Source of the DNA: Cyanidioschyzon merolae | Taxonomy: Eukaryota | Length of the DNA stretch: 64,000 nucleotides | Reading direction: 5' to 3' (one strand) | Assembly (NCBI GenBank): GCA_000091205.1 | Contig: AP006500.2 | In this document: in pieces, positions 1 through 56,406 of the stretch | How the letters are laid out: each line of letters opens with the position of its first letter | How positions within the stretch are numbered: the stretch's first letter is position 1 | Translations under genes and position numbers: made by a program | Notes under the pieces: generated by a model | Databases searched by the model: none | Seen by the model: only the letters and a program-made list of their open reading frames with translations | Told to the model about the DNA's origin: nothing

Positions 1-546
1 GCAAGCCCGGGTGACCTCGGTTCTGCGCTGCAGGAAGCGAGCTGCGCAGTTGTTCGTACGGAGCGCGGCGGCAAAGTTACTTACCACGGACCGGGTCAGG
101 TCACTGGTTACGCTGTTATGAACCTGAGACGATATCGCTGTGACCTGCGGTGGTACGTTTCCTTGCTCGAGGAGGTTGTGATTCGGTGCCTGCGCGACTT
201 TGGAATACCCGGCGAGCGACGCAGTGATCATCATGGGGTCTGGGTTGCCGGGGGAACCCGCAAAATTGCCTTTATTGGCGTGAGCGTTAGCCGTTGGGTC
301 ACCTGCCATGGGTTTGCCCTGAATGTCAACCGGGAGGTGCTCCCACCGTTCCGACGTATCGTTGCATGCGGTCTCGATGGCAACACCGTGACTTGCATGC
401 AGGATCTGCTGCCGCATCCGAACACCTGTTCCGCAGAGCAGGTGCGCAACTCACTTGCCACGCACTTTAGTGAACTGTTCGATGTTGCACTGAAACCTTA
501 CGCATCTTCGGCGGCGTCGGGAACAGATTCGCGATCAGGTACTTGA
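1..546 (+). CDS. Octanoyl/lipoyl transferase (LipB/LIP2 family), 5'-partial; the reading frame is already open at base 1
   Basis: Frame 1 translated from base 1 reads ...RGGKVTYHGPGQVTGYAVMNL..GVWV..KIAFIGVSVSRWVTCHGFALNV..ACGL. These are the hallmark LipB motifs (TYHGPGQ, KIAAIG…RWVT.HG.ALNV). Stop at 544-546. Confidence 0.8.
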   Translation, partial: ASPGDLGSALQEASCAVVRTERGGKVTYHGPGQVTGYAVMNLRRYRCDLRWYVSLLEEVVIRCLRDFGIPGERRSDHHGVWVAGGTRKIAFIGVSVSRWVTCHGFALNVNREVLPPFRRIVACGLDGNTVTCMQDLLPHPNTCSAEQVRNSLATHFSELFDVALKPYASSAASGTDSRSGT

Positions 547-1412
547 TAACAGCGATGAACGCTATCCTGTTTCGAACGCTGCCGCCATCTTAGGAACTCG
601 ACTGTCGATAGCGATGCCCAGTTGCTTGTTCTGTAGATGCAAAAACACGACACGATTTGGGTTCATGCCAGGTGCAATTGCGGCAGAGAAGACGATGACG
701 CGAGTACACCTGCGCCAGCGTTGGGAAGCTAATCAGGCACTTGTCTGGCAATCTCGTTGTCGCTGGAGCGTGGCACCCCGAAGAATCGTGTTTTATGTGC
801 TGCAAAAAAAAGCCCGGCTTTGCAACGCTGCTGATTTGTTGGCGCTTATGGCCGCAGTAAGCGCCAGGCCTCTGGGTAGACTTGGCAGATCAAGTCGTAG
901 GGTCGGATCGATGCATCCAGAACCATTTGTGACATGCATCCGGCTTTGGCGCTACAGCGTTGACAGCGACGTCGGATCACATCTACAGCGCTAGCCACCG
1001 AAAGCATTCACAGAATTCCGAGCTTTTCTGAACCAACATACGCATGGGCGCCTGCGCAGCTGAAACATGTTGGCATCGATGGAGGTACGCCAGCCGGTGA
1101 TCCGCCGGGCGTACGCGAGTGATCTGCAGCTGTGATCCTTCATATGTACATGAAAGAGACTAAATGTTCAACTATGTACTGTTGGCTCTCTAGCGTAAGA
1201 ACTAGAGCGCGAGGCCTTCTTTGCAACAAAACCGTTTACCTGGGAATCCGCCTAACGAAACACCAAGGTATTTCGAGCTGTGTTCTGGGCACTCTTTTGC
1301 TGGACAGGTCCCCGCCCGCTGGTACAAGCACCAATATCAACAACTTCGTCGTTCCCAATAGGTCAGTGAGTGGCGTAACCACGGCGGACTCGGCACAACT
1401 TGTTCTGCCAGG

Positions 1413-1988
1413 ATGAAACGAACTGCGTTCGCACCTGGTTTGCCGCTGAACCGAAGAAGACTTGTGAGGACAGCGCCGCGTGCAACGGGAGCTGGTACGG
1501 CGCGTAAACCTGCACAGCGACCACTCGTGGCAGGCACTACTGCGTCCAACGGCGCGGCACCCGTCAGGGGTATCGCAACGCGCAAGAGACGTGGAGGTGC
1601 GCTGCCCGGTGACCCCGCTGCACCCAAACACAACGTCACGATTCTAAACTACCGCGATGATGAGTCTCTGACGCTCGCTGTTCCCGAGGACCGCTACATA
1701 TGGTGGTATTTCCGGGAAAATGGTTATGAGCTGCCGTCATCGTGCCTGAACGGGTGCTGCACCACGTGCGCCGCCAAGATCGTTCGCGGCAGTCTAGAGC
1801 AGCCCGAGGCGCTCGGACTCACACGAGAGTTCCGTGACAAGGGCTATTGTCTACTGTGTGTAAGCTATCCGCGTTCCGCACTCGTGCTGGTCCTTCAGAG
1901 CGAGGACGAGGTCTACGAGCAGCAGTGGGCAACAACTTTCGAGAGCGGCGGCAAACGCTGGGGCGGCCTCATCCCAGAGGAAGACTAG
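1413..1988 (+). CDS. Plant-type [2Fe-2S] ferredoxin with a roughly 75-aa N-terminal presequence and a C-terminal extension
   Basis: ATG verified at 1413. The core reads ...YELPSSCLNGCCTTCAAKIVRGSLEQ...GYCLLCVSYP, which is the C-x4-C-x2-C ... C ligand pattern and LTCVAYP-like motif of plant ferredoxins. The N-terminus is Arg/Ala-rich. Confidence 0.8.
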   Translation: MKRTAFAPGLPLNRRRLVRTAPRATGAGTARKPAQRPLVAGTTASNGAAPVRGIATRKRRGGALPGDPAAPKHNVTILNYRDDESLTLAVPEDRYIWWYFRENGYELPSSCLNGCCTTCAAKIVRGSLEQPEALGLTREFRDKGYCLLCVSYPRSALVLVLQSEDEVYEQQWATTFESGGKRWGGLIPEED

Positions 1989-3040
1989 GCGCTGCGAAAA
2001 TCGCTGGTGAATGCGGCAAGGGTTCCACGGGAGCTCGCTTTGTTCTCTGACGCACCACGTGTGTGAAATAGATACCGAGGAAACACGAGAAGCCGCATTT
2101 GTTTCGGACGTATCACCGAAAATACGCCACGGTCTGCGGAGCGCCAGCGCCGCGTTCCAAGGAACCGGCCTCCTTCTTCTTCACCAAAAGGTTGCAGGAG
2201 GTTATGTAGCCTACCGCGAACGGCTGCCATTCAGACCGTGCGAAAAAGCAGTACGACTGGACAATGATCTGACAGTCGCCGCACCTCTTCGCGCTTTACT
2301 TGCGTTTGCTGAAACGCTGCGCCGTAGATCTCTATATCAAAGCGAATATAGCTGTCGACGATGTGTGCGGCAGCACTGGCGCTACAACAGAAGTAGTCTA
2401 AGCGCCATCCTCGATTCTGGAAGTAGTTCTGGACATGCCGATACCCGATGTAGGAGTAGGCGCGGACAGATGGATGCAGCCAGCGGAACGTGTCCAGGAG
2501 TGCGCATTCCTACAGGGTTTGCGAAAAACTCGCCCGCTCCTCATCAGTAAAGCCCGCATTACAACAAATCCCATCGGGATCGAGGTATCGATTTCCTGGT
2601 GGGCGCAGGTCCAGTCACTGCACCAGGTCCTCTCTGTCTTCGGAGGCTTGGTTCGGAATGTATGCCGAATATCTCAGAACTATCCCAAAAAGCTCCACAG
2701 GACGCACCGACCAAAGCACATACTGCCGAGCTGGGATCGAATACCCCCGAATGCGAACGGGATTATCGCATTGGAACCGTCCTCGTCTGATCACTGACAA
2801 GCGCCCTAGGATCTGTTCCGAGCGCTCCACAGTGCCGGTTCGCACTGGAGTCAACGATTCAGATCTCCCATGACTGCTGCAGATCCTCGTCGAACAAGGA
2901 GCGATCAGATCTCTGCGAGGATTCTCTTCACTGAGCTGGGCTTGCAAATTATAGTGCACACGGAATATCACGTTTCCCATTGGCGTACGTTCGCTCCGTC
3001 AATGCCATCCGCATCGAGGGCGTCCGATGCGTCATCGAAA

Positions 3041-4168
3041 TCACTGTACATTGGAAACTGGCTGCTCGGCAGGGTGCTGCCCGTTGGTCTGCTCATCGGC
3101 AACAACCTCGAGGGTCGGGAATTCAATGAGGCACTCGGCAGCGCGAACGACATCGGCGATCCTGACATCCTCCATTTTCGGGATCGGGACCCGAGGCTGG
3201 TTCGCTCGGTCGGATTTCAGATATACCGAAAAGTGCTCAGTGTCTGCAACGAATCGTCGTATCTGGAGGCGCTCGAGGGCCTCGGCCATTGTGACATGCT
3301 CTGGGCAGCGGTCCAGTGCGAGGACACTATCGTTCGGCGCTTGCGCTGCAACCGAAACGAAGCACTCAATTCGCCATTCGATGCAATCCGCTGCTGAACG
3401 ATACATCGATGTATTCCGGCGGTGCTTGGAAAATACTTCAGGTAAAAGTTGAAGTCGGATGCCGCGCTTCGTTGCAGCACGTTGGACGGCTGCCAAGCGC
3501 CTCCGCCGTGCGTGGTCCTCCGCTGCGGTGGGCCCGCGTAACCGCGGCACCGAACCGCCGCCAGACAGTATTTGCTGGACGTATCGCTTATGACTCTGTT
3601 GACGTAGTTCAAGATCTTCCAAAAACGCATAGTCACGAAGAAGTTGCTTCAGGTCGTAGTCAGTGCGCGGAATAAAAGCGTATCGGGTTGTCTCGAGCCG
3701 GCCGGAACAACCAGCTTCCCTATGTCCACGATAGCAGTCCAGAGAGCACAACCGTCGCTGACATACCGGGCACTTGTAGACAGCCTCGTGCTGGTTTTCG
3801 CACTGAGAGCACCGCTTTCGGGCTTCGGTGCCTGCAGGGGTTAGGGCTTTCGCGTGGCTGTCGCTGGCGGTGTCGACGTCAGGTTGTGCATCGAGCTCCG
3901 TCGTGGTGGAGACGGAGCGTTGCCCAGGCCGCCACGAGACGTCTGCAACGTCGTCCGTCACAACACCGTCCCGACAAAAGGTATCTCGATCCATGCAACG
4001 ACGAGACAAGGTACTTGGGAGACGGTGCGGAGCGCATGCCGCTGCGAGTGCCAGGAACGCCATACCATAGATGTATACGTCTAGACAAAATGGTCTATCC
4101 TTGCGCACCGCGCTGTAGCGCTCTTCCGGCGGTGCGTCAACCACGCATGAACCACGAGCAGCGAGCAT
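3041..4168 (-). CDS. zf-HIT domain protein (HIT-type zinc finger), otherwise uncharacterised
   Basis: CSQCENQHEAVYKCPVCQRRLCSLDCYRGH matches the zf-HIT consensus (C-x2-C…Y-x-CP-x-C…YCS-x2-C-x3-H). The ORF track starts at a TTG at 4228; the first in-frame ATG was verified at 4168 (reverse complement of cat at 4166-4168). The start is uncertain. Confidence 0.55.
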   Translation of the reverse strand: MLAARGSCVVDAPPEERYSAVRKDRPFCLDVYIYGMAFLALAAACAPHRLPSTLSRRCMDRDTFCRDGVVTDDVADVSWRPGQRSVSTTTELDAQPDVDTASDSHAKALTPAGTEARKRCSQCENQHEAVYKCPVCQRRLCSLDCYRGHREAGCSGRLETTRYAFIPRTDYDLKQLLRDYAFLEDLELRQQSHKRYVQQILSGGGSVPRLRGPTAAEDHARRRRLAAVQRAATKRGIRLQLLPEVFSKHRRNTSMYRSAADCIEWRIECFVSVAAQAPNDSVLALDRCPEHVTMAEALERLQIRRFVADTEHFSVYLKSDRANQPRVPIPKMEDVRIADVVRAAECLIEFPTLEVVADEQTNGQHPAEQPVSNVQ

Positions 4169-4320
4169 GTGTTTCCCGCGTGAACAAGCAAGTAGCTCTG
4201 TTGGAGCTGAAAATCCAAACGATTGCAATTGTAGAAGGAACCGGGAACCTCGCGTACGAGACAGCTGTTTGCAGGAAGCACGAGGCGGCTCCCATGGACG
4301 GAGCAGCTAGATGTTTTTTT

Positions 4321-5848
4321 GGATGCGCATGGAACACTGAACTGCTGCTCGTTCTATGGGCGCTTTTCGGTTCCCCGGAGCTTGATTCGATGTGTGGTCT
4401 CGAATATTGGCGTGCGGACACAGGGGGTTACGGTTCTACACAGCCCAGTCTGGCATTCTCGTTCTCGTTTACAGAGACGCTGCTTCGACGCTTTTGCCGC
4501 TGGAATGCTTGACGTTCCCGGACTCGTCTTGATTCCGATAACGTCTGTGAACAAGCGCTCGCAAGTCAAAAGATATCTCTCGGCAATGTACGCGCACAAA
4601 CATCCATGCTTCCCCTTTTGCTCGCCTGAAGCATGCGCAAATCACGCATGCTTCCAATGAAGACCTGCCTCTGATGCACACAAACTCGACGTCGTCCACT
4701 GTAGCGTTCGCCACAAGCAGATGTCACGCGCGCTCTCACCGAACGCTGCCCAAACGAACGGCTCTGTCCAAAATCCATATCCTCGTCCCTTTCTGGTCAT
4801 CGATGGAACGGCTCGCGACACCAGCGTGATACCCCGCGCGGGATGCGCGCCCAGAGGCTCCCGTCTCTCATGTGTGCATCGAAAGGCGCCCTGGACTCGG
4901 AAGTCAGATATCCAAGCGATCGTCCCGAAGCACAGACCGCGTCACCGCTGTGCACGAAGCGAGCCTCGACAAACCGTAATTTCTCGACTTGATCTCCAGC
5001 GCGGCATCGCGTTGCGGTGCCCGCCCCATCGTGGCCAACACGAAACGACCAGCGTATCCGAGAGCAAGTATGGGTAATGGAACTTGAGGGTAGGCGCTTC
5101 ACCATGGACGCTTTCCCGAAAGCCATTACCCACTCCGAATTCCGGGATCCATGGTCAATCTGAACGTTTTGTCGTCTGAATCGTGCCCGACATCGCGTTC
5201 CGCACGTCCTCTGTCGAAGGCGCTGCGTGCGCTTGCGCGTGCACCTGCCAGCCTTCAGGGCTAACCGATTGCCGAGCTCGAGCCCGTGCTCATAGCGTGC
5301 GACACTGGGCTTGGAGGCAGAGGCGGGCATCACGTACGGCCTCCTGCGCTCGTCAACGGCACGTACCGAGCGAGGAGGAAAGCGTGCAGGTGCCAGAGGG
5401 CGACGCTCGGGGGAGCAGGAGCTGGAGCTGGCGCCGGAGCTGGCGTCCGAGTTGTGGGCGCACCGGCATACCCGGTTGCAGTCCGGTGGCGTCCCTTGCA
5501 GCGGCGCCACCGAGACCGTCTACGAAGCAGACGGGCATGAAATGCGGAGCGTAGATCGCAGCGATCGTCGGTGTATCCACTGCGTCAACAATCGCGTGAA
5601 GCTGCGGTATCGCGAAGCGAACTCGGGCATCAACACCTATTGAGTGCTGACAACGAAGGTGGATGCAAGTGAGCGTGCGGCACATGCACTGCCGTATACA
5701 AGAGACAGAAGCAGGAAGCAGGTGCAGCAAAAGCCTGCAGCGGCAGGTGCTGACGATTGTGACGAACTACCCAAACTTTGGAGCCTACGCTCGAGTTAGC
5801 GTACTCGACCAGCTCCATTTCATTTTGACCTGGAGGCAGAGGTATTCA
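4321..5848. repeat. Dispersed repeat copy R1 (1,528 bp), contains a decayed Tc1/mariner-like transposase segment
   Basis: Colinear with 10113-11640 at a constant offset of 5,792 bp with no indels. Translated ORFs differ by only about 1% (237-aa ORFs differ at 3 residues). Residues ...LVIDGTARDTSVIPRAGCAPRGSRLSCVHRK... (4721-5077) resemble the Tc1/IS630 DDE region. Confidence 0.9.
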
Positions 5849-6347
5849 CGGGAGGCATGCGGTGATCGGTAGACAATCCCAGTTCCCGATCGAGACCGCA
5901 TCATGATTCCAACGCCCTGGAACAAGCACATTTGGAACCGCAAAGTGGTTCAGCTTCCACGTGGAGAAGCAGTACCCAGCTTTTCCGCTTTATACACGCT
6001 CAAGCGGTAACCGTCAGCACGCCTCGCATCCGTTCGTCGGTTTCAAATGCGACCGTTGCCCTGGACACTCGTCCACGCTGCACCCGAATATCGCCCAGAT
6101 TCCGAGTCGCCCGAACAAACTGAGCAACAAAGCCACCTGGTGCAGCATGGACTACAGTGCAGCGGACACCGCGGATGCATGAACGCGCGGCCTGATACCA
6201 AACAGCTTAGCTACCAACCATATTTATCGGATGAGCGCGTGCCTATCTTCGAACTAGCGCATACCTCTCTCTCTCAAACCAAAATTCCCCATCATGATCC
6301 CGTTCCTTTGAGAGCCGCCAAGGGCCGCCTCGTGCGCGCTACGCTAT

Positions 6348-9300
6348 TCAAGAGCTCGCGACTGCCGTTCGGACACGTCCCTCATCGGTGCCGGACCTTG
6401 CAGCAGAACCGGTCGTTGACGGGTGCATCATTTCGGGTACCGGTGGACACGAGCACACCAGATTCCGATCACCGTACACGTCATCGATGCGAGAGGTTCG
6501 CGGCCAGAACTTGCCGCGCGCGTAGAGCCAGCTTGCCGGGAAGGCGCCAATCTCGCGCGGATACGGCCGATCCCAGGTATCCGCACTGACCACCTCTGCC
6601 GTGTGTGGTGCATACTTGAGCGGATTGTGCTGCGGATCCCAGCGACCCTGCTCAATCTGGCGAATCTCTTCGCGAATCATCAGCATCGCATCGCAAAACC
6701 GATCGAGCTCATCGATACTCTCGCTCTCCGTCGGTTCAATCATAAGCGTTCCAGCCACCGGCCATGACATGGTAGGAGAATGGAATCCATAGTCCTGAAG
6801 GCGTTTCGCCACGTCCGATTCCGTAACACCTGCACTAAGCTTGAACGGACGTAGATCCAGGATAAACTCATGTGCGCATCGTCCGTGCTTCCCGCGATAC
6901 AGAATCGGATACGCCGGCGACAAGCGCGCCGCCATGTAATTCGCATTCAGGATCGCCTGTTCGCTGGCCTCGCGCAAGCCGTCGCTACCCATCATTTTCA
7001 CAAACATCCACACAATCGGCAGGATGGATGCAGAGCCGTACGGCGCCGCCGCAATCGGCCCAATCGCGGTATCGGGGTGTGCGCTCGCCACCGGGCGCAC
7101 CGGATGCGACGGCAGGAAAGGCGCCAGCGCCTCTGTCACGGCGATCGCGCCGACGCCGGGCCCGCCGCCGCCGTGCGGGATCGTCAGCGTCTTGTGCAGG
7201 TTCAGGTGACACGCATCGCCGCCGATCTCCGCGGGCGACGTGAGGCCCATCTGCGCGTTCAGGTTTGCCCCATCGATATACACCAGACCTCCGTTTGTGT
7301 GAATGATGTCGCAGATTTCCTTGATGCCCTCCTCGAACACTCCGTGCGTGGAGGGATACGTGATCATGGCTGCGGCGAGCTGATCTCGATGTTGCTCCGC
7401 GCGAGCACGCAGTTCGGCGATATCGATGTTGCCCTGGGCGTCGGTACCGACCGGGATGATACGCATACCTGCCATTTTGGCGCTCGCTGGGTTTGTTCCA
7501 TGCGCCGATGTCGGTACAATGCATACCTTGCGTTGGTGCTGGCCGCGGGCCTTGTGGTACGCCAAAAAGGTCATCAGGCCGGCGTATTCGCCCTGGGCGC
7601 CGCTGTTCGGCTGCAGAGACACGGCTGCGAATCCTGTGATATCCGCGAGATCACGTTCGAGATCTGCAAACAATCGTTGGTAGCCGCGCAATTGTTCGGG
7701 TGGTGTAAAGGGATGCGGCAGGGAGAACTCTGGCCACGATACAGGGATCATCTCGCTGGTGGCGTTCAGCTTCATCGTGCAGCTGCCCAGAGGAATCATG
7801 GAGTGCACCAGCGACAAATCCTTGGCTGCTAGTTGATGGATGTATCGGAGCATCTTGTGCTCCGTGCGATACTCGTGAAATACCGGGTGCGTCATGTATG
7901 CGGTTGTTCGTTCGAAGGCCTGGGCAAGGTTCGGCTCGAGGCCGCCAAAACCGCTCGGTGGCAGCGATGCAGCGATTTGCTCCAGCTCCTCGCCAGAGCA
8001 TGGACGTTGCGGACCGCGAAAAGCTGAGACAAGCTCCTGGAGGTCGTCGCGAGTATGCGTTTCGTCGAACGATACAGAAATTGAGCGGGGCCCCAGAGAT
8101 CGTACATTCAGTTTTGCCGCATCGCAGCGCGCTAGCACCGCTTGCGCCGCCTCTGTGGTCGGGTAATCGATGCGCACGGTATCAAAAATTGCAGCCTTTT
8201 CGCTGACACCCACGCCGACTGCAGCGGCGAAGGTGCGGGCGAAGCGTTGTACGCGATTGGCGATAGCACGGAGGCCATCCGGTCCATGATACAGCCCATA
8301 CATTGCGGAAATGTTCGCAAGCAACGCTTGAGCGGTGCAGACGTTGCTTGTTGCCTTATCGCGACGAATATGCTGTTCGCGGGTCTGCAGCGCCATGCGC
8401 AGTGCCGGTTTGCCCTGAGCGTCGCGACTAATGCCGATAATTCTCCCTGGCATGAGACGCTTGAGATCGTCACGGCAGGCGAAAAACGCAGCCGATGGAC
8501 CACCATACCCCATGGGAACACCGAAGCGCTGTGCACTGCCCACGGCGATATCAGCTCCCCATTCTCCAGGCGGTCGCAGCATCGTCAGAGCCAGGAGATC
8601 TGATGCAACAACGACGCGTGTGCCATGCGCGTGCGCATTCTCCACAAACGACGTATAGTCATGGATCGTGCCGTCCGTTGCGGGATACTGCACCAGCGCA
8701 CCACACAAGTCGGCTCCATCCCACTGCACCTGCTGCCAGTTGTCCACGACAAGCTCGATGTCCATGGGCTCTGCACGCACCTTCATGACTGCAATCGTTT
8801 GCGGATGCACATCCTTGTCGACGAAAAATCGAAGCTTCTTGCGCTTCGAGACAGCAGCACACATACTCATCGCTTCGGCTGCCGCAGTTCCCTCGTCAAG
8901 CAGTGAGGCATTCGCTATAGGCAGGCCCGTGAGGTCCCCCACCATTGTCTGGAAGTTCAGCAGGGATTCCAAGCGTCCCTGCGCAACTTCAGCTTGATAT
9001 GGAGTGTACTGCGTATACCAGGCAGGGTTTTCCAGGATGTTTCGCTGAATGACTGGAGGCATGATGGTACCATAGTACCCGCAGCCGATAAAGTTACGTC
9101 GCAGTTCGTTCTGTTTCGCGATCTGCCGCAGCTCAGCGAGCACCTCAGACTCGGCGCGCTTTGGCCCAACGCTCAGCTTCCGCGTCGTGCGAATCGACTT
9201 GGGAATCGTCTGATCCATCAGTTCTTCGATACTTTTCACACCAAGAACCTGAAGCATTTTTTCGTTCGCTTCCGGGTTCCCAGAGCCGGTATGTCGTTTG

Positions 9301-9554
9301 TAGAACAGGTCCAGCGGCGCAAACGCCGAACTCGATGCCCCTCGCCGGAACTCTGCCTGTAAACGCCAACTCAACGCCGACCTCAGTGAATGGTAAGCAC
9401 CCGCGACGCCTACACCACGTACAGGAGCTCCTACCACTGAATTACCGGTGTGGTAGCGAGAGCGTGCTGAATTAAGCCAGCGCTGCGTGTCCGCACCGAG
9501 CGCACGTCGACGAGTTACCGACCCGCTGACGCGAGTGAGCAAGAGGCGAAACAT
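6348..9554 (-). CDS. GLDC: Glycine dehydrogenase (decarboxylating), glycine cleavage system P-protein, with a mitochondrial presequence
   Basis: A 1068-aa single exon; ATG verified at 9554. The full-length two-domain P-protein shows (TQYTPYQAE..., PLP-dependent core, ...HLNLHKT..). The N-terminus MFRLLLTRVSGSVTRRRALG... is presequence-like. Confidence 0.95.
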   Translation of the reverse strand: MFRLLLTRVSGSVTRRRALGADTQRWLNSARSRYHTGNSVVGAPVRGVGVAGAYHSLRSALSWRLQAEFRRGASSSAFAPLDLFYKRHTGSGNPEANEKMLQVLGVKSIEELMDQTIPKSIRTTRKLSVGPKRAESEVLAELRQIAKQNELRRNFIGCGYYGTIMPPVIQRNILENPAWYTQYTPYQAEVAQGRLESLLNFQTMVGDLTGLPIANASLLDEGTAAAEAMSMCAAVSKRKKLRFFVDKDVHPQTIAVMKVRAEPMDIELVVDNWQQVQWDGADLCGALVQYPATDGTIHDYTSFVENAHAHGTRVVVASDLLALTMLRPPGEWGADIAVGSAQRFGVPMGYGGPSAAFFACRDDLKRLMPGRIIGISRDAQGKPALRMALQTREQHIRRDKATSNVCTAQALLANISAMYGLYHGPDGLRAIANRVQRFARTFAAAVGVGVSEKAAIFDTVRIDYPTTEAAQAVLARCDAAKLNVRSLGPRSISVSFDETHTRDDLQELVSAFRGPQRPCSGEELEQIAASLPPSGFGGLEPNLAQAFERTTAYMTHPVFHEYRTEHKMLRYIHQLAAKDLSLVHSMIPLGSCTMKLNATSEMIPVSWPEFSLPHPFTPPEQLRGYQRLFADLERDLADITGFAAVSLQPNSGAQGEYAGLMTFLAYHKARGQHQRKVCIVPTSAHGTNPASAKMAGMRIIPVGTDAQGNIDIAELRARAEQHRDQLAAAMITYPSTHGVFEEGIKEICDIIHTNGGLVYIDGANLNAQMGLTSPAEIGGDACHLNLHKTLTIPHGGGGPGVGAIAVTEALAPFLPSHPVRPVASAHPDTAIGPIAAAPYGSASILPIVWMFVKMMGSDGLREASEQAILNANYMAARLSPAYPILYRGKHGRCAHEFILDLRPFKLSAGVTESDVAKRLQDYGFHSPTMSWPVAGTLMIEPTESESIDELDRFCDAMLMIREEIRQIEQGRWDPQHNPLKYAPHTAEVVSADTWDRPYPREIGAFPASWLYARGKFWPRTSRIDDVYGDRNLVCSCPPVPEMMHPSTTGSAARSGTDEGRVRTAVASS

Positions 9555-9794
9555 TCAGCAAGGCAGCACGAGACTCTATGTAAACTTCCTCGACTTGACT
9601 GTCACAGCACTATGGGACTCGGCTCAGCACCAACCGTGAACGACAGCGCAAACAAACAAGCGTTTACAGACGTTGACGCCTTGTGAACCAGACCTAAAGT
9701 CTAGCTCAGGCAGATGGTACCAGCGCGATGATAGCGTCGGCGGCACCCGCAGCAGCCAGCGATGCGTACTGCCTGGTGATGAATCGGATGGCAG

Positions 9795-9945
9795 CGACGG
9801 GAAGCGCGCACGCACACACACCTGCCGCAGCCGCACGATCGACACTCAGATCAGCGCCAGCGACAGGAAGCGCGCGCGCACACACACCTGCCACAGTGGC
9901 AGGATCGACACTCAGATCAGCGCCAGCGACAGGAAGCGCGCGCGC
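9795..9945. repeat. Minisatellite, about 60-bp unit, roughly 2.5 copies
   Basis: gaagcgcgc(a/g)cgcacacacacctgcc(g/a)cag..gatcgacactcagatcagcgccagcgacag is repeated head-to-tail. The translated ORF shows KRARTHTC.SR.IDTQISASDR repeated. Confidence 0.8.
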
Positions 9946-10112
9946 ACGCCCATCGCAGGCGAGGCGCTGCCTGGAGTCATCACGCCGCGGCGTCAGAGCG
10001 GCAGCCGCTGGGCGCGCCACGTATGACGTGATCTCGCAGGCACACAGCCACGGAAGCAGTGCGCGCGCGTGCTGATGCCGTCCGGCAGGCGTCGACTGCT
10101 TTAAGGATCGTA

Positions 10113-11640
10113 GGATGCGCATGGAACACTGAACTGCTGCTCGTTCTATGGGCGCTTTTCGGTTCCCCGGAGCTTGATTCGATGCGTGGTCTCGAATATT
10201 GGCGTGCGGACACAGGGGGTTACGGTTCTACACAGCCCAGTCTGGCATTCTCGTTCTCGTTTACAGAGACGCTGCTTCGACGCTTTTGCCGCTGGAATGC
10301 TTGACGTTCCCGGACTCGTCTTGATTCCGATAACGTCTGTGAACAAGCGCTCGCAAGTCAAAAGATATCCCTCGGCAATGTACGCGCACAAACATCCATG
10401 CTTCCCCTTTTGCTCGCCTGAAGCATGCGCAAATCACGCATGCTCCCAATGAAGACCTGCCTCTGATGCACACAAACTCGACGTCGTCCACTGTAGCGTT
10501 CGCCACAGGCAGATGTCACGCGCGCTCTCACCGAACGCTGCCCAAACGAACGGCTCTGTCCAAAATCCATATCCTCGTCCCTTTCTGGTCATCGATGGAG
10601 CGGCTCGCGACACCAGCGTGATACCCCGCGCGGGATGCGCGCCCAGAGGCTCCCGTCTCTCATGTGTGCATCGAAAGGCGCCCTGGACTCGGAAGTCAGA
10701 TATCCAAGCGATCGTCCCGAAGCACAGACCGCGTCACCGTTGTGCACGAAGCGAGCCTCGACAAACCGTAATTTCTCGACTTGATCTCCAGCGCGGCATC
10801 GCGTTGCGGTGCCCGCCCCATCGTGGCCAACACGAAACGACCAGCGTATCCGAGAGCAAGTATGGGTGATGGAACTTGAGGGTAGGCGCTTCACCATGGA
10901 CGCTTTCCCGAAAGCCATTACCCACTCCGAATTCCGGGATCCATGGTCAATCTGAACGTTTTGTCGTCGGAATCGTGCCCGACATCGCGTTCCGCACGTC
11001 CTCTGTCGAAGGCGCTGCGTGCGCTTGCGCGTGCACCTGCCAGCCTTCAGGGCTAACCGATTGCCGAGCTCGAGCCCGTGCTCATAGCGTGCGACACTGG
11101 GCTTGGAGGCAGAGGCGGGCATCACGTACGGCCTCCTGCGCTCGTCAACGGCACGTACCGAGCGAGGAGGAAAGCATGCAGGTGCCAGAGGGCGACGCTC
11201 GGGGGAGCAGGAGCTGGAGCTGGCGCCGGAGCTGGCGTCCGAGTTGTGGGCGCACCGGCATACCCGGTTGCAGTCCGGTGGCGTCCCTTGCAGCGGCGCC
11301 ACCGAGACCGTCTACGAAGCAGACGGGCATGAAATGCGGAGCGTAGATCGCAGCGATCGTCGGTGTATCCACTGCGTCAACAATCGCGTGAAGCTGCGGT
11401 ATCGCGAAGCGAACTCGGGCATCAACACCTATTGAGTGCTGACAACGAAGGTGGATGCAAGTGAGCGTGCGGCACATGCACTGCCGTATACAAGAGACAG
11501 AAGCAGGAAGCAGATGCAGCAAAAGCCTGCAGCGGCAGGTGCTGACGATTGTGACGAACTACCCAAACTTTGGAGCCTACGCTCGAGTTAGCGTACTCGA
11601 CCAGCTCCATTTCATTCTGACCTGGAGGCAGAGGTATTCA
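10113..11640. repeat. Dispersed repeat copy R2 (1,528 bp), direct orientation relative to R1
   Basis: See R1. Both boundaries were verified by eye (identity begins at ggatgcgcatggaac and ends at gaggtattca in both copies). Confidence 0.9.
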
Positions 11641-12624
11641 AGCGCATCTGATTTGTCGCACAGACCCAATACCTTTAACGGAAAGGTTCCAAACTGAATG
11701 GCAACGTGTAGCTCCAGGTCATCTGCTCTCCATGCGATGAGCGTGGTGGAGCACTCAGCCAGGGCGCGAAACTGCCCTCGATGGGCTCGGTACGCCCATT
11801 CGGGCAGCGGGGAACGTACCGCGAACAGCAGCTGACATGTTGCATTGATCCCATTGACCAACTGGAAAATCCTACTGCAGCCGTCTCTACTGACGTCCAT
11901 GCAATCATCCGTCGTGAACGGTCGCTCCGCGGGTCATGTCGAGCGTGCGCACACAAGCGATGCAGCCTGCGAAATCTCAGCAGTCTTCCACCCTGGTATT
12001 TGCCCATGTGACAGTATTACCTGGACTGGAAATCATTGGTGTGCGCTTTCCAAGGCGTCGTTCCCGCATGCACGACCGGAAGCTTTAGACACCTACGCGA
12101 ACAGCTCTTCGAAACGGGAATGCGAACGAAGCGCTTTCCTCGTAGCACATCGTTTAAACTGCAGACCCGATGATTCAAAACGGATCTCCGCGGGATGTGC
12201 GAATGCTACGCGTGACCCGGGTGGAAACCGCGGCTCTGCGTGCACCACCTACCTCCAACTTGTAGTTATTCGTCGGCACCGCGTGCCAGCAGTGATGCCT
12301 CAGAGGTGAACCGACCGAACCGACCGGTTGCTCCTTGGGCAGGACCCTTCATCATGGGCAGTGGTGAAAGCGCCCGTCCACCAACCCAGTTCTGCGAAAC
12401 ATATTATCGCACTTTGGATCGTAGAGGCCGTAGCACTGCGGCGGTCGCCAATGCTCATCGCTGGACCACTCAGTACAATGGATTGCTCAGCTGCAACCGG
12501 TTGATCGCAGCGCTTCGCGGGTGACACACTCCAGCGCCACATCGCACATGAGCGCACATGCTTGTACAAGGAGCCTATTGCGAGCATCTATTGGCCGCAA
12601 TTCCGCGGTAACCAGAACTGCGCT

Positions 12625-15039
12625 CTAGTCCGAAGCGCTGTCCCGGAAAAGGTACCGCGCGAATAGTTCTAAACCGCCGTCGCTCCGACCGGCCTCACCA
12701 CGAACCTCCCGGTCGAAATACGGCACAACGATGAGAGGACTAACACCGCTTCGACGCGTTTGCGAGGGTAGTGCCTGCTGTAAACGTTCAGTCTGCTGAC
12801 CGTGTTCCCGAACAAGCCGATGCACAAAGCGCTCCAAGTCTCGTAGCGTTGGTGGTACAACCTGATTGATCACGAGACGATGCGACGCAATACGCTGTCT
12901 TGCAAGTGCTTGTGCCAAGCGCTCTGTTTCCACAACGTTCAGATAGGTAGGCCGCGTAACTAGAACGACTTCGCTTCGTTCCGGATCGTGAAGAAGATCC
13001 CTCAGCTCCATAAGCTGTTCCCGAAATCGACTCAAGCGTTGGGCCGGGGTCAGCTCAGGTTCAGTACGATCGCTGCGTCCACCGAGACCCGAAAAGAACT
13101 GCGTGATACCATCTAGCTTCGATTTGAGGCGGAGGATCCTCCCGAGCAGACCATCCAGAAAGTCCGGAAACGCAAGCAGGCGCAGTGTGTGCCCAGTCGG
13201 CGCAGTATCGATCACAATATGGTCATACTCGGATGATATCAGGTTCACGACGCGAGAGAGCGCCACGAGCTCATCGATGCCTGGAGGCAGCGCGTCAAAC
13301 AGGTTCCCCAGATCACCAATGTCCAGATCCAGACCCAAAATCTTCGCGGAACGGAGCGATTCTAGCGTTTCCCGAAATTCGATCAGCGCTCGTTCCGCAT
13401 CGACTTCCAGGATGGAAAGATTTTCAGCGATCAGTGTCACATCATTCAGGTAGGAGCCGGACGGTGCTTTCACGTCGAATAAGTCGCCCAGAGAATGGGC
13501 CGGATCCGTTGAGACCACGATAGTGCGTTGCCCGGTATCGGCAAGGTGCACGCCGATGGCTCCCGCTGTCGTGGTCTTTCCACAGCCGCCTTTAGCAGCG
13601 GTGAGGACCACTTTGCGCAGGCGCGGCTTCTCATCAGACCACAATGGCGACAGACAGGCAGCGAAGGCGCGAGCACCATACACTGTGCGAATCTCCGTAT
13701 CGAAAATAGGGACCTGAACGATATCGTATCCATGCGTAGCACCGAGTCGTTGGTGCAAGCGTTCAAGAAACTCCTGCTGCGCGCTTTGCATCGAGTGTAT
13801 GTACGCGCCCTTCGCGGATGGTTGCAGCACCATGTTCACGATGACAGCAGAGACCGATAAGCTCCTCTTGTGAGTTAATTCATCGATCAATCGAAGCGAC
13901 TCTCGGACGGCTAGCTCTGTCGCAATGGTCACCACAACGATTTCCGTGGATTTCTCGTCACGGAGCAGGGATCCGAGTTGCTGCATTCGCTGCTGAAATG
14001 TACCAATTTTGGAGGCGGCCTCCTCCCATTGCTTTCTATTCACCGAACCAGAGACTGTATTCAAGATCACACCCAGCTTACCCCTGAGTTGCAAGAGCTT
14101 GCCCAGAAAGGAATCCAGAAAATCGGGAAACGATAGCAATCGGAGCGTGTGCCCGCTGGGTGCCGTATCGATAACCACCCGATCATAGCGTTCCAGTAGG
14201 TCCAAAATAAGCGAGAGCGCAACAAACTCATCAGCCCCGGGAGGTACGGTATCCAAAAGCTCTTGCACATCTGCCAACCCCAACTTGTTTAAATCGATCA
14301 GACGCTGCGTCGAAATGAGGGCCTTGAACTCCTCCGCAGCAGCAGTAATATCGATTTCCAGTGCGTCCAGGTTTGGTGCTACGCGTTGCACTTGGCCACG
14401 CACGCTTGAGCGCCCCTGTGAAGCTGGCTCGATCAGCACCAGTTCATCGAGCGACGCCGCCTCCGTGCCAAGGTCAACACCGAGCGCATCACCGAGCGAG
14501 TGTGCCGGGTCCGTAGACACAACCAGCGTGCGTAGACCGGCTGATGCGAGTCGATGCGCTACGGCAGCGGAAGTGGTCGTTTTCCCGGTCCCGCCTTTGC
14601 CAGTGAAGAGACATATGCGCGTGGTGGTGTCTGTTCGCAACAGGTGTGCGAGCGGAGACTCGGACACGTCGAGCGCGTTTGCAAGCGAGCTGCACGAAAC
14701 TTGTTCACGTCCTGCATGGGCGACTCGCTCGCGCCCCGATCTCGACTCGTTATTCTGTTTCCTGGTGAGCGTTTTTCGGGTGAGAGCCGCACCCGGGAAC
14801 CCACGTGTCCGTAGCCAAGTCCGCGCCTCACCGCTCGGCAGCGCTTCTGTTACAACGAGTGCATTCGTCCGGAGCGCCCAACCCCGTGAAAGCGTCCAGT
14901 GTCCCGCGTCGACTCGAGCAACGCACAGCACAGCCTGTTGCGTACCCGCCAGCCGAGTTGAGCGTAATAGAACCTGGTCGTTCAGGGCTGCAACCGGAAT
15001 CGAGAGGCCAACAAAGCCCGGCAATCGCTGGTGTTCCAT
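12625..15039 (-). CDS. Two-domain ArsA/GET3-family ATPase (duplicated deviant Walker-A ATPase) with a long N-terminal extension
   Basis: Two homologous halves, each with a GKGG(T/C)GKTT P-loop and a VVSTDPAHSLGD motif. The ORF track starts at a GTG at 15132; the first ATG was verified at 15039. The mature ATPase is preceded by an extension of about 150-180 aa. Confidence 0.9.
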   Translation of the reverse strand: MEHQRLPGFVGLSIPVAALNDQVLLRSTRLAGTQQAVLCVARVDAGHWTLSRGWALRTNALVVTEALPSGEARTWLRTRGFPGAALTRKTLTRKQNNESRSGRERVAHAGREQVSCSSLANALDVSESPLAHLLRTDTTTRICLFTGKGGTGKTTTSAAVAHRLASAGLRTLVVSTDPAHSLGDALGVDLGTEAASLDELVLIEPASQGRSSVRGQVQRVAPNLDALEIDITAAAEEFKALISTQRLIDLNKLGLADVQELLDTVPPGADEFVALSLILDLLERYDRVVIDTAPSGHTLRLLSFPDFLDSFLGKLLQLRGKLGVILNTVSGSVNRKQWEEAASKIGTFQQRMQQLGSLLRDEKSTEIVVVTIATELAVRESLRLIDELTHKRSLSVSAVIVNMVLQPSAKGAYIHSMQSAQQEFLERLHQRLGATHGYDIVQVPIFDTEIRTVYGARAFAACLSPLWSDEKPRLRKVVLTAAKGGCGKTTTAGAIGVHLADTGQRTIVVSTDPAHSLGDLFDVKAPSGSYLNDVTLIAENLSILEVDAERALIEFRETLESLRSAKILGLDLDIGDLGNLFDALPPGIDELVALSRVVNLISSEYDHIVIDTAPTGHTLRLLAFPDFLDGLLGRILRLKSKLDGITQFFSGLGGRSDRTEPELTPAQRLSRFREQLMELRDLLHDPERSEVVLVTRPTYLNVVETERLAQALARQRIASHRLVINQVVPPTLRDLERFVHRLVREHGQQTERLQQALPSQTRRSGVSPLIVVPYFDREVRGEAGRSDGGLELFARYLFRDSASD

Positions 15040-17033: not shown

Positions 17034-17036
17034 ACG

Positions 17037-17079
<43 letters not shown>
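17034..17079. repeat. (GCGT)n microsatellite, about 11 units, alternating purine-pyrimidine
   Basis: gtgcgtgcgtgcgtgc... seen directly. It lies 130-175 bp upstream of the uL18 start on the gene's 5' side. Confidence 0.95.
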
Positions 17080-18474: not shown

Positions 18475-19051
18475 CGGGCCGTTCGCGGCGGCTTCGGCGT
18501 CGGGCAAGGTGCCCAAACGCCTGCACCTTGTACCCGCCCCAAGTCGAGGAGTCGCAGTCGGGCACTACGCCCGTGTCAGACGAAATTGGAACTTTGGGCG
18601 GCTCGTCCCGATTGTGGCGACGATTTTTCCGAACTTGTGTTCGATGTACTGCCTTCATCATTCGGGGTGCAGCGATGCAGACGTGCCGATGTACACGACG
18701 TTTTCGGATATTGGGTCGTTGTTTCGGAGTGGCTCCGTTGACAATTTGCTGGTGGAATTCGTTGCGTTACTGGAATCAGAATGATGTGCTACGCCCTCGA
18801 GCAAGTATTCGTGAAATCACCGAGATCATCTTCGCAATTCATGTGGAGAAGCCTCCACTCTTCTCCTTTTTACGTGTATCATGTTTAAATCATGAATTCT
18901 CCAATTTTTCGATCTTTTTGGATCAAGGCAAATCGCGGACGCAGCAATTCGCGCTGCCAGATCGGCGGGGCCAAAAATCGACGCCGGCCCGTGACGACTT
19001 GTTCATGAGCGCATACCAGAAGTTCACGAAGAATCAAGTCAAATAATCGAA

Positions 19052-19741
19052 TTGGTTCGAAAGATAAGTCCTTCCCTGATTGTGGTCATCGACGAAACAG
19101 CATTCCACAGCAGCGCGATACCTCTGAGGGCATATTCTCCCAGAGGCTCCCGTCTCTGCCGCATGCATCGAAAAGGGTCCGGTGCACGGGCTGCAGTCAT
19201 CGCAGCGATACGCTTCCAGATGAGAGCGCACCACCGCTCTGCGCAGAGAGAGCGTCGAAGAATCGACATTGCTCGAATTGCGCTCCAGCGTGGATATTCT
19301 TTCCGGTGCCTGTTTCATCATGTACATGACAGCGTCCCACAAAACCCGTATGGAATGGAACAGCGTGCGCGTGAGCGTGCATCGGACAGCGTACTCGCCA
19401 CGGGGATTCTCCAGAGAATACCCGTGATCATCAGGAACAGCAGCATGCGGGGAAACGGTGGAGGGCATCGAGGTGAGCTTTTCTGCACCCGCCAAGGGCA
19501 AGCACTGAGCGATGAAGCACGTCTCGCGCGCCACAGCGCGGCGCTCGGAAGCGACATGGTTGGTATATTGGAAAACGTAACCACAGCCATACGTTTCAAG
19601 TTTGAAGTGCGCACCGAGACTCTACACACCGTAAGCGAAATGGCAATCGAAGCGTCAATTGCTGATTCTGCCTGTACCGGAAATACATCCACTACAACCG
19701 GAAGCAGCGAAATCTGGACTCAAACGCTGTCATCAACGTAA
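19052..19741 (+). mobile_element. Decayed Tc1/mariner (IS630-superfamily)-like DDE transposase relic
   Basis: ...SLIVVIDETAFHSSAIPLRAYSPRGSRLCRMHRKGSGARAAVIAAIRFQ... matches the Tc1 DDE core pattern (vfiDEsgf…rgy..rG.r……g.r.sviaAi). No intact full-length ORF or terminal inverted repeats were identified. Confidence 0.5.
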
Positions 19742-20154
19742 TGCTTCTGCTGCTGACTACGGTGCTGGAGGGAAAGGAGAGACCGGCACATTCAAAGTCG
19801 GAGATGAGAGACAGGAAATGGAAGCAGTCGTAGAAAAACGCGCAAAAACTTTTGCTGATGGCAAAGGGCAGAAACGAGAGCTTGAAGGCGTATGCGCGTC
19901 TTCATAAGCATGTCCAATTTTATGGTAACATGGGTGTATCGGAGGCTCGAGTCGGCAGTGGACGCATGGCTGTCCCAGAAATCACTTTTGTCCATATTGT
20001 ATCTATTATATCGAATTTTATCCAAAATGGATCGCACACGGCGAGCGGCGTCGCCATCGTCCAGCTCCGGCTGCAACACTTGGATGTTCTTACTACCCCT
20101 CTAGGCTTCAAAGGTTTGCTGCAAGGGCTGCTTTCTGGGAGACGCTGACGCATC

Positions 20155-24006: not shown

Positions 24007-24466
24007 ATGCCATTCTTTGCGGATGTTCGCAGCAGACTCGGCACACGATGCAACGCGCGAAACGACCAGAACATCGGAGAGGCAGCATGGGTCATGAGAC
24101 CTGAACATAAACCACAGAATAATGCCATTCTTTGCGGATGTTCGCAGCAGACTCGGCACACGATGCAACGCGCGAAACGACCAGAACATCGGAGAGGCAG
24201 CATGGGTCATGAGACCTGAACATAAACCACAGAATAATGCCATTCTTTGCGGATGTTCGCAGCAGACTCGGCACACGATGCAACGCGCGAAACGACCAGA
24301 ACATCGGAGAGGCAGCATGGGTCATGAGACCTGAACATAAACCACAGAATAATGCCATTCTTTGCGGATGTTCGCAGCAGACTCGGCACACGATGCAACG
24401 CGCGAAACGACCAGAACATCGGAGAGGCAGCATGGGTCATGAGACCTGAACATAAACTACAGAATA
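24007..24466. repeat. Minisatellite, 115-bp unit, 4 tandem copies
   Basis: Identical 70-aa ORFs start at 24007, 24122, 24237 and 24352 (period 115). The unit is atgccattctttgcggatgttcgcagcagactcggcacacgatgcaacgcgcgaaacgaccagaacatcggagaggcagcatgggtcatgagacctgaacataaaccacagaataa. Confidence 0.9.
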
Positions 24467-24714
24467 ATGGATGCTTTCCAGAACACCAAAATGCATCGCC
24501 TAATCTGGTATCCTTCGTCCTTGTAAATGTTCCGTTGAACAATTGAGCACACGTCATCCGTTCGTTGCCCGCGGAGGCGCCTCTCTCAAGGGCGGTGTGC
24601 GATCGCGAGGGCGTCACGCACGGCGCGGCTGCATGCGTGCGTTGCGTGCGCGCGCTCAGCCGAGTCTCTTGGGCAAGCGCTTGCCTAGCTGCCTGTTTGC
24701 GTCAAAGTAGGCTG

Positions 24715-38699: not shown

Positions 38700-39200
38700 G
38701 TTGGTCGAGTTGCTTCGCTGGGGCCCATACCCTATGCAAATCAGGCCGAGGAGCACTACCGGCGGCACGGAGCTCTTTCATCTGCGAAGAGTTGCTGCCC
38801 GGTGTGCAAGTATTTCGCGCCGGGAAGCGCCCAAGTCAGCGCTCGGCACGCCGCCTTTCACGTCCAGAAACACGACCAGTACTTTATCGAATATTCACGC
38901 CGGCACCAGCGCATTCGCCGTATTCGAGCGCAGACGGATCACGGCACCAGCGAGATCGCGCTTGCCGCTGGGGCGCGTACTGCGATGCGGGTTCGAGGTT
39001 CATACCACGTATCGCCGCCAGCGGTACCGGCATTTCACTGGAAGCGATCGCTGCGATGACGGGAGTGTGCCTCTGAGACTCTATTCCATGCAAACAGAAG
39101 AGACCGGAGCCTCTGGGAGCATCTCCCGGGCGACGTATCATGGCGCTGCCGTCGAATGCCGTATTTTGGGCGTCCGCAGAGAGAGACGAGGATTTCGCAT
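38700..39200 (-). mobile_element. Decayed Tc1/mariner-like transposase relic (third copy of the family)
   Basis: The minus-strand translation ...PRGSGLFCLHGIESQRHTPVIAAIASSEMPV... parallels the 19052-19741 relic (PRGSRLCRMHRKGSGARAAVIAAIRFQ). Nucleotides 39095-39130 are reverse-complement-similar to 19140-19175 and to 4855-4880 (cccagaggctcc.gtctct...catgcatcgaa). Confidence 0.45.
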
Positions 39201-40218
39201 TCAGGCCGAATCGATAAATTGACGATACAAGTCTATTGTATTTTCGGCATGAGCTTTTGAATCAGTCACCAGGCGAAGCTGTTGCGTATCTCGCCCCGTC
39301 AATCCAGCGGCGCGAATTGCTGCGCATACGCGTTGCCTCGAAATTGAAGATGCATGATCTGAGCAGGCTGCACCGAATGAAAGGAGATACCTGAAGCCTT
39401 GTTCATGTGCACGAAATCAGAATGTCAGTTATTGAACGAAATTCTGTTCGAGAATATCCCGATTCATATTGATTCCGGTGACGTTAAGCATTCCAGCTGC
39501 CAAGTGTCGAATACACCACTCCGTACCTTACCAGAGAGTCCCGGAACGACGTGGGGATCCCGAATCTCGCTTTGTTCCAATCCGAATCGCAACAGTATGC
39601 ACCTCAAAAATTTCGATATATAAGTCGAAAGACTGTAACAGTGCGATCCGTTCCCTGTTCCACGCCGTACTCTGGCACGGGTGTCATTCAGTACACAAAA
39701 TCCGTTCTTGCCCAGAGGCACCTGGGAGTGCGCCTCCAGCGCTGGCGCTGCTGCTGCTGCTGCGCACCACGGAGGCGTTTCACCGATCTCTTTTTTTAAT
39801 TTCATTGACAGAACGTTTACCTGGGCCAGCGTTCTCCGATTATGCGCATTTTTCTTTTCTTACTATTTTTGTGTGTGTTTTTTTCAGTGCGCGCCACGGA
39901 GGCGTTTCACCGATGCGCACGGATCGCGTAGCGCGGCGCGTGCGAGCGGGAACGCCGGCGCTGCTGGGGTGCGTGCGTGCGCGCGCGCGTCGCCCGTCCA
40001 CGCCGCGCATCGTGATGCTTCGGCGGCCTTCAGGGGCGCGCGCCCGCCGCCTCGCCGTCCGGGGCGCAAACTGCCCATCATCCTTGGGGACGACGATCAT
40101 CGAAGCTGGGCGCTGGCGTCGACGTGCCCGTTCATATAGAGTGTGCGCTGTGGTATTGAGTGAACATCGACTCGTGTCGGGCACAAGGCACACACCAAAT
40201 AAGCTTTCAACACGTGGT

Positions 40219-55797: not shown

Positions 55798-56350
55798 AGC
55801 TGCTCGTGACAACGTGGCCTACGCGGAACGCCCAAGTCTTCACTACCAGAGCCTGGTAACACGAAAACACAACGAGATCAGACGAGGAATCCGTCGGTAT
55901 GGATTGCTGGTGCGAGAACGAACCATATCGCGTGCTCTACCACGCGCGGCATGCCACAGCGCACCTGGCCAGACACCTGTTTGCGGCACCTGGGTACAGT
56001 TTGGCACCAGCGACGGTCGCCTGCTACACATATTCTTCGACGCACGGCTATGGAACATGTCGCGATTCAGATAGAGCTGCGCTACGAAGGACGGTATCTG
56101 TTAGGGTTCCGCATCCCCTGCCGCTTCCATGCATGCCACTGCGACTTTGAGGTGCTTTCAACGCCCCCGCCAGGCGCTTTTACGCACGGACTTGCGTCCA
56201 TGAATGTAAGTGCGTACAGCGTTTTCCGATCGACCGAATGTTTACCTGAACAAGGTGATCCTCGATTGCACGATGATGATGATGATGACGATCGGCATCA
56301 AGTGAAGCATCTGCCAAGCCACGCCAAAGCCTCAGCTTCCATGTGCTAGC

Positions 56351-56406
56351 CATCACCATCACCACCACCATCACCACCACCATCACCACCACCACCACCA
56401 CCACCA
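56351..56406. repeat. (CAC/CAT)n triplet microsatellite
   Basis: catcaccatcaccaccaccatcaccaccaccatcaccaccaccaccacc seen directly; a (GAT)n run lies just upstream at about 56275-56295. Confidence 0.9.

Follow-up and report, generated by a model that had tools for sequence, protein, structure and literature searches.

The CMT1A-REP pair, which flanks human PMP22, consists of low-copy repeats that mediate non-allelic homologous recombination, and it holds the remnant of a mariner-like element. For Leishmania, Ubeda et al. are said to have shown experimentally in 2014 that loci flanked by direct repeats undergo amplification and circular excision genome-wide. Cyanidioschyzon merolae 10D is a model alga with a minimal, near repeat-free genome and efficient homologous recombination. 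Its genome was reported to hold very few transposons and several hundred decayed interspersed repeats (PMC1955436, PMC5405695). Nozaki et al. reported only eight class II elements and no long terminal repeat (LTR) elements in it, and described in 2007 a WSV repeat containing a truncated open reading frame (ORF) with BLASTX similarity to WSV486 of white spot syndrome virus (WSSV) (PMC1955436). Marker removal by recombination between direct repeats is in routine laboratory use in this alga (PMC8504449). Here, we analyzed a window of 64,000 nucleotides (64 kb), which is part of chromosome 18 of strain 10D, and in which the gene for glycine dehydrogenase (decarboxylating) (GLDC) is bracketed by two near-identical direct repeats, R1 and R2 (collectively R). 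Literature searches returned no published mention of this GLDC repeat pair. Our results suggest that R1/R2 probably arose by local duplication of a dead dispersed element before strain 10D and the wild populations split, with occasional short-tract gene conversion since.

Geometry of the repeat pair and reliability of the assembly

Self-BLAST and fixed-offset comparison demonstrated that R1 and R2 are 1,528-bp direct repeats with 11 mismatches, 0 gaps and 99.28% identity (Table 1). The two copies are colinear at an offset of 5,792 bp, enclose a unique segment of 4,264 bp and form the sole long repeat pair that self-BLAST found in the window. A sequence-only reading of this DNA had described near-identical colinear direct repeats around GLDC at this offset and with no indels, which is confirmed here. 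Since chance is unable to give 1.5 kb at 99% identity, the match is real, and R1/R2 have the length (at least 1 kb), identity (at least 90-95%), common orientation and location on one chromosome that characterize a direct-repeat pair. The edges are sharp, with both sides dropping to background identity within a few bases, and the 11 differences are scattered over the whole 1,528-bp unit. The orientation of R was set by the pseudo-ORF of its family, which runs on the + strand, opposite to GLDC. On this strand R reads GGATG...ATTCA (TGAAT...CATCC in gene orientation), and the copies are embedded as ...TTTTT-R-CGGGA... and ...TCGTA-R-AGCGC.... In addition, the bases 3' of the copies loosely resemble the start of R, GGATGCGCATGG, reading AGCGCATCTG after R2 (11641-11650) and GGCATGCGG after R1 (5849-5867), which could be the trace of a microhomology-mediated junction or a chance resemblance in GC-rich DNA.

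The genome of C. merolae 10D is a finished telomere-to-telomere Sanger genome (PMC1955436). Because R1 and R2 differ at 11 sites, they were assembled separately. Moreover, five metagenome contigs from hot springs (L004, L005 and L015-L017) hold the two copies with unchanged spacing, and all four repeat junctions were seen in independent assemblies. These data rule out the second copy as an assembly artefact, the case that the sequence-only reading had named as fatal to its claim. Approximately 20 short-read contigs of 4.0-4.6 kb carry GLDC only; most of these end 50-530 bp inside an R copy and a few stop short of R, while contigs L029 and L030 terminate exactly at the repeat end. Some assemblies further contain stand-alone contigs of exactly 1,528 bp with the repeat ORF (P0138 clusters; members P0185 and P0190). 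Such a contig is a collapsed repeat node, by which the repeat boundaries are independently confirmed in wild populations. Every recovered contig with a near-identical R has ArsA, GLDC or BCD1 flanks, and scanning metagenomes with a 40-mer taken from the edge of R gave only four contigs, all from this locus.

One metagenome contig (L027, Ga0209012_1007496, positions 1-5949, 5,949 bp) is a circular permutation of the repeat plus the GLDC segment, consisting of 5,792 bp plus ends that overlap by 159 nt with 2 mismatches. This contig may stem from a cycle in the assembly graph, from a genuine circle or from a tandem array. The junctions of a circle or tandem array are all present in the linear form too; since every junction of L027 also exists in the linear arrangement, the contig does not speak for circles, and it was set aside as evidence for an episome.

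The order on the minus strand is ArsA/GET3, R2, GLDC, R1 and BCD1/zf-HIT. The GLDC protein, P-protein of the glycine cleavage system, matches Pfam GDC-P over its full length (E 3e-187) as well as GcvP2_C (E 1e-58), and is identical to C. merolae 10D BAM82500.1, with 0 differences (P0132). GLDC is a single-copy gene (PMC4867895). The 66-bp tandem repeat upstream of GLDC is also present in environmental contigs. Genes for a LipB-type lipoyl(octanoyl) transferase and a plant-type 2Fe-2S ferredoxin (118-546 and 1413-1988) lie less than 6 kb from GLDC and were found in contig L031 too. The H-protein, the partner of GLDC, is lipoylated; the closeness of these genes to GLDC may be a coincidence. Short microsatellites lie at 17035-17079, with the sequence (CGTG)11, and at 56350-56406, where a CCA-rich 12-mer occurs in 4.8 copies.

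Table 1. Positions of the repeat copies, related elements and genes within the 64-kb window
Feature	Position	Strand	Remarks
Repeat copy R1	4321..5848	+	1,528 bp; 500 bp from GLDC stop, 177 bp from BCD1/zf-HIT start
Repeat copy R2	10113..11640	+	1,528 bp; 985 bp from ArsA/GET3 stop, 559 bp from GLDC start
Glycine dehydrogenase (decarboxylating) gene, GLDC	6348..9554	-	P-protein of glycine cleavage system; intact intronless 1,068-aa ORF
Decayed motif LVIDGTARDTSVIPRAGCAPRGSR in R1	4793..4864	+	Aligns with VVIDETAFHSSAIPLRAYSPRGSR of element C; R2 copy at +5,792
Element C	18566..19947	+	Diverged family member, 58-65% identity to R; firm similarity 18660-19838
Element D	38733..39685	-	Shorter diverged family member, upstream of DnaJ gene; 39020-39587 is 58-65% identical to R
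BCD1/zf-HIT protein gene	3041..4144	-	Downstream of GLDC; Pfam BCD1 and zf-HIT
Tandem ArsA/GET3-type ATPase gene	12625..15039	-	Upstream of GLDC; Pfam ArsA_ATPase, E 8e-121
66-bp tandem repeat	9792..9947	.	2.4 copies at 93% identity; within unique spacer separating R2 from GLDC start codon

R belongs to a dispersed and decayed family

The window contains four members of the R family with unit sizes of 0.6-1.5 kb. In blastn comparisons, R is 58-65% identical to elements C and D over 300-550 nt, with E-values down to 1e-30. For the ORF of element C (19052-19741), a search of 1.84 billion representative proteins gave 43 homologues at E≤1e-3; the eight of these that were inspected are short pseudo-ORFs rich in Arg, Ser and Cys, and a Pfam scan of ten homologues gave no credible domain. 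A profile built from the 43 homologues matches the + strand of R1 at 4661-5074 (E 1.5e-23) and 5265-5537 (E 1.3e-7), and R2 at 10453-10866 and 11057-11329. Taken together, family similarity spans at least positions 4377-5723 of the 4321-5848 occupied by R1. Because it covers most of R, the duplicated unit corresponds approximately to one element. The sequence-only reading had also considered that the unit might be a high-copy family with ordinary divergence between copies. The unit is indeed multi-copy, but R1 and R2 diverge by 0.7% from each other versus 35-42% from any other family member seen. The R family agrees with published descriptions of this genome as having few transposons and many decayed repeats.

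The ORFs of R look non-coding as judged from their composition and matches. Neither the long ORFs nor all six frames of R gave a transposase or any credible domain in Pfam, with nothing at E≤1 for the six frames. A 237-aa ORF on the gene strand of R, which is called a gene by the metagenome pipelines of the Joint Genome Institute (JGI), was rejected as coding. Its homologues comprise its own 90% cluster only, and the R ORFs have a negative codon score and a GC2 (GC content at second codon positions) of 0.62, like antisense ORFs. The nine variable sites in the R ORF are distributed 5:2:2 over codon positions 1, 2 and 3. The pseudo-ORF on the + strand is full of stops and has no match in a large protein database, and the window gave no match in Rfam or tRNA scans.

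Element C nearly fills the 1,638-bp spacer between Thg1 and RPL2 (18517-20154). The orthologous spacer in a Cyanidiococcus-like contig (L002) is 350 bp long (2188-2537) and lacks element C, indicating that the family was acquired in the Cyanidioschyzon lineage. The same spacer suggests that differences in spacer length between genera may largely reflect the R family. A tandem array at 24007-24469 consists of four 115-bp units that are 99% identical, each holding a 47-nt stretch approximately 77% identical to R (5041-5087), and its right edge runs into a 200-nt fragment of the R family (24389-24615). This array seems to be a small satellite that arose from an R-family member.

Each copy of R had initially been described as carrying a Tc1/mariner-like transposase remnant. 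A relative of R suggests this weakly. The ORF of element C matches DDE_3 with E 0.0054 and 17 bits (cutoff 28.6) at profile positions 2-45, and IS630 with E 0.0072 and 15.8 bits (cutoff 100) at profile positions 143-192 of 299; both matches are sub-threshold and, with approximately 80 proteins scanned, their E-values are not significant by themselves. Both fall on the motif VVIDETAF...SPRGSR (VVIDETAFHSSAIPLRAYSPRGSR), with which the decayed motif of R1 aligns (Table 1). The DDE_3 match occurs in only two of 44 family members, an orthologous pair, whereas the other 42 gave no match in Pfam or NCBIfam, and the family consensus and R itself gave none in Pfam. Searches of PDB sequences with the family profile and a single ORF gave no match. 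The termini of R1, R2 and C gave no inverted match with a score of 9 or more, of the kind that terminal inverted repeats would give, and the R1/R2 flanks carry no target-site duplication, TA or other. Family members further share an upstream motif like FGVAPSTVCRW (FGVAP(S/L)T(V/I)C(R/W)W), which we take to be typical of the IS630/Tc1 helix-turn-helix (HTH) and regard as a lead. It is plausible, albeit unproven, that the R family derives from a DNA transposon of the IS630/Tc1-mariner type.

Origin and maintenance of the repeat pair

The locus was compared with those of related genera. The order ArsA-GLDC-BCD1 is kept in the Cyanidiococcus-like contig (L002; GLDC 89% identical), and the order ArsA-GLDC in Cyanidium caldarium (L003; GLDC 75% identical). 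A search of both loci for flanking repeats and for R-related or family sequence found none. The Cyanidiococcus-like contig has spacers of 1,790 and 1,159 bp around GLDC, compared with 3,070 and 2,119 bp in C. merolae. Since the related genera keep the gene order without the repeats, GLDC sits at its ancestral site, and R1 and R2 were inserted on either side later, which rules out the composite-transposon-like or transduplication structure that had been proposed. A composite transposon of GLDC was rejected because the bracketed gene is not at a new locus relative to L002 and L003, and an LTR retrotransposon because the repeat ends show no TG...CA pair and what lies between the copies is a host gene whose synteny is conserved.

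As the pair is common to strain 10D and the environmental populations, the duplication predates the split of 10D from hot-spring populations and is not very recent, contrary to one of the two explanations first offered for the high identity. Comparison of 10D with three environmental haplotypes showed differences of approximately 1.0-1.2% in unique spacers, 0.6-0.85% in R and 0.2-0.9% in coding DNA, with the difference between spacers and R resting on a few dozen sites, indel columns included. Within 10D, R1 and R2 differ by 0.72%, approximately equal to the distance between R orthologues of 10D and the wild haplotypes. This suggests either that the duplication occurred just before the strain split or that some homogenization has taken place.

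The second explanation first offered, ongoing gene conversion, meets with mixed evidence. At repeat positions 69, 1300 and 1328 both 10D copies agree with each other and differ from nearly all of 13 environmental copies, and position 24, close to the edge, shows a paralogue-specific difference that recurs across strains. This pattern, which is expected of short-tract gene conversion, hints at such events. However, the 11 differences in 10D are evenly spread, which disfavors strong ongoing homogenization, and the environmental interiors are probably collapsed. The same evidence bears on the possibility that two ancient insertions beside GLDC have been held near-identical by continuous gene conversion (concerted evolution), with no recent duplication. 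Identity that stops sharply at approximately the element ends is what conversion confined to the homologous stretch predicts, and the three private sites common to both 10D copies, with a paralogue-specific difference only near the edge, point the same way. Nevertheless, the even distribution of the 10D differences, with no long identical tract, indicates that homogenization is not strong, the identical environmental interiors are probably due to assembly collapse, and the absence of the family from Cyanidiococcus limits the age of any insertion. We thus consider concerted evolution an improbable account of the pair.

These results are best accommodated by the local duplication of a dead dispersed element, which we regard as the likely origin of R1/R2. 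The R family would have entered intergenic spacers after the Cyanidiococcus split. An element beside GLDC may then have given rise to a second copy in the spacer at the opposite end of the gene, at a distance of 5.8 kb, either by a local re-insertion mobilized in trans or by a repair or template-switch event. The copying would have occurred before 10D and the hot-spring populations diverged, after which the copies would have drifted to 0.7% divergence with occasional short-tract conversion. Recombination between the R copies is predicted to excise GLDC as a 5,792-bp circle and leave one repeat behind, and unequal sister-chromatid exchange between them to produce a tandem GLDC duplication. Selection presumably eliminates the deletion products, since there is only one copy of GLDC. 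The sequence-only reading had called the arrangement a substrate for unequal recombination, and this view gains support from the direct-repeat pop-out established in C. merolae (PMC8504449). R1/R2 is hence a plausible substrate for homologous recombination, while a function of the pair is undemonstrated.

Several points weigh against local duplication followed by conversion. Transposition as the copying route is unproven because of the missing target-site duplication and terminal inverted repeats, and a random segmental duplication is not expected to coincide with the element ends, although these ends were defined from only three family members. The count of two near-identical copies covers the window and the recovered contigs, and further copies elsewhere in 10D are possible. 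The deletion and tandem-duplication products are predictions. In addition, the copies within the metagenome contigs differ only less than approximately 130 bp from the edges; the repeat interiors there were probably collapsed by the assembler, so their identity is unusable, which weakens the case for gene conversion.

If a non-autonomous DNA transposon that was active until recently had inserted twice independently, once on each side of GLDC and by coincidence in one orientation, there would have been no local copying, and this would explain why the duplicated unit matches the extent of family similarity within approximately 50-125 bp. The 1.5-kb length and the order of the HTH-like and DDE-like motifs also fit an element of IS630/Tc1 size. 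We nevertheless consider this origin unlikely. The copies have neither terminal inverted repeats nor a TA or other target-site duplication, their pseudo-ORF is riddled with stops, and the other family members seen are only 58-65% identical, with no young subfamily visible. Moreover, all recovered contigs with a near-identical R come from the GLDC locus, and just eight class II elements were reported in the genome by Nozaki et al. (PMC1955436).

A functional role for R, as a promoter, terminator or non-coding RNA gene that was duplicated and kept upstream of GLDC and BCD1, appears very unlikely. GLDC and BCD1 do run on one strand and each has a copy upstream of its ATG, at 559 bp and 177 bp, respectively, transcription of dispersed repeats has been reported in C. 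merolae (PMC1955436), and R is slightly less diverged between strains (0.6-0.85%) than the unique spacers (approximately 1.0-1.2%), but this gap rests on a few dozen sites including indel columns. No Rfam or tRNA match was found in the window, and in Cyanidiococcus and Cyanidium the orthologous genes do without R. It is likewise very unlikely that the pair has been kept because GLDC copy number is plastic, by reversible excision of the 5.8-kb circle or tandem amplification of the repeat together with GLDC. If this were true, hot-spring populations would tune their photorespiratory capacity to fluctuating CO2, contig L027 would come from circles or arrays that truly exist and not from a cycle in the assembly graph, and the locus would parallel in nature the repeat-mediated amplification of Leishmania, here in a eukaryote whose genome is among the simplest known. 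Finally, an artefactual second copy, or a GLDC carried in by a composite transposon or LTR-like structure, can practically be dismissed despite the geometry resembling LTR-internal-LTR and the circularly permuted contig L027, given the 11 differing sites in a finished Sanger genome, the independent assemblies that hold both copies and all four junctions, the gene order kept without the repeat in related genera, repeat ends without TG..CA in a genome without reported LTR elements (PMC1955436), and the lack in L027 of any junction beyond those of the linear form.

Comparison with known systems

In work with C. merolae, R1/R2 has to be taken into account when GLDC is targeted or PCR is designed there, and it would foreseeably give rise to spontaneous deletions or duplications of the gene in cultures. 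Assemblies of this species from short metagenome reads break or collapse at the GLDC locus. The pair also offers a small natural test case for the rates of ectopic recombination and gene conversion in 10D versus wild populations.

Similar to CMT1A-REP around PMP22, R1 and R2 are near-identical direct repeats around one dosage-relevant gene, for which reciprocal deletion and tandem duplication are predicted. In contrast, R is 1.5 kb long with its copies 5.8 kb apart, whereas the CMT1A-REP copies are 24 kb long and 1.4 Mb apart. C. merolae is moreover haploid in its vegetative stage, and rearranged GLDC alleles are predicted only. Like the amplifiable loci of Leishmania, GLDC is flanked by direct repeats from degenerate mobile elements that would allow circular excision and amplification; however, R1/R2 is one locus, and GLDC amplification is hypothetical. 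The unit of approximately 1.5 kb is comparable to IS630/Tc1-mariner elements, the relative element C weakly matches the region of the first catalytic Asp in DDE_3 and IS630, and a second R copy just 5.8 kb away resembles the local hopping with gap repair of these elements. Unlike them, the R family falls below every curated threshold, has no terminal inverted repeats or TA duplication, and its reading frame is destroyed.

Within C. merolae, the R family is akin to the repeats described by Nozaki et al. in being dispersed, decayed and intergenic with truncated pseudo-ORFs, but its units of 0.6-1.5 kb are smaller than the reported mean of 3.2 kb (PMC1955436). The comparison with the WSV repeat was made through its published description. 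The repeat-gene-repeat geometry is also that of the direct-repeat marker recycling engineered in the same organism by Takemura et al. (2018/2019), as summarized in PMC8504449. That construct is artificial and its loss is selected with 5-fluoroorotic acid (5-FOA), whereas natural loss of GLDC would be counter-selected. Rather than a new element or mechanism, R1/R2 is a fresh example of a familiar type, namely a low-copy direct-repeat pair from a dead dispersed element.

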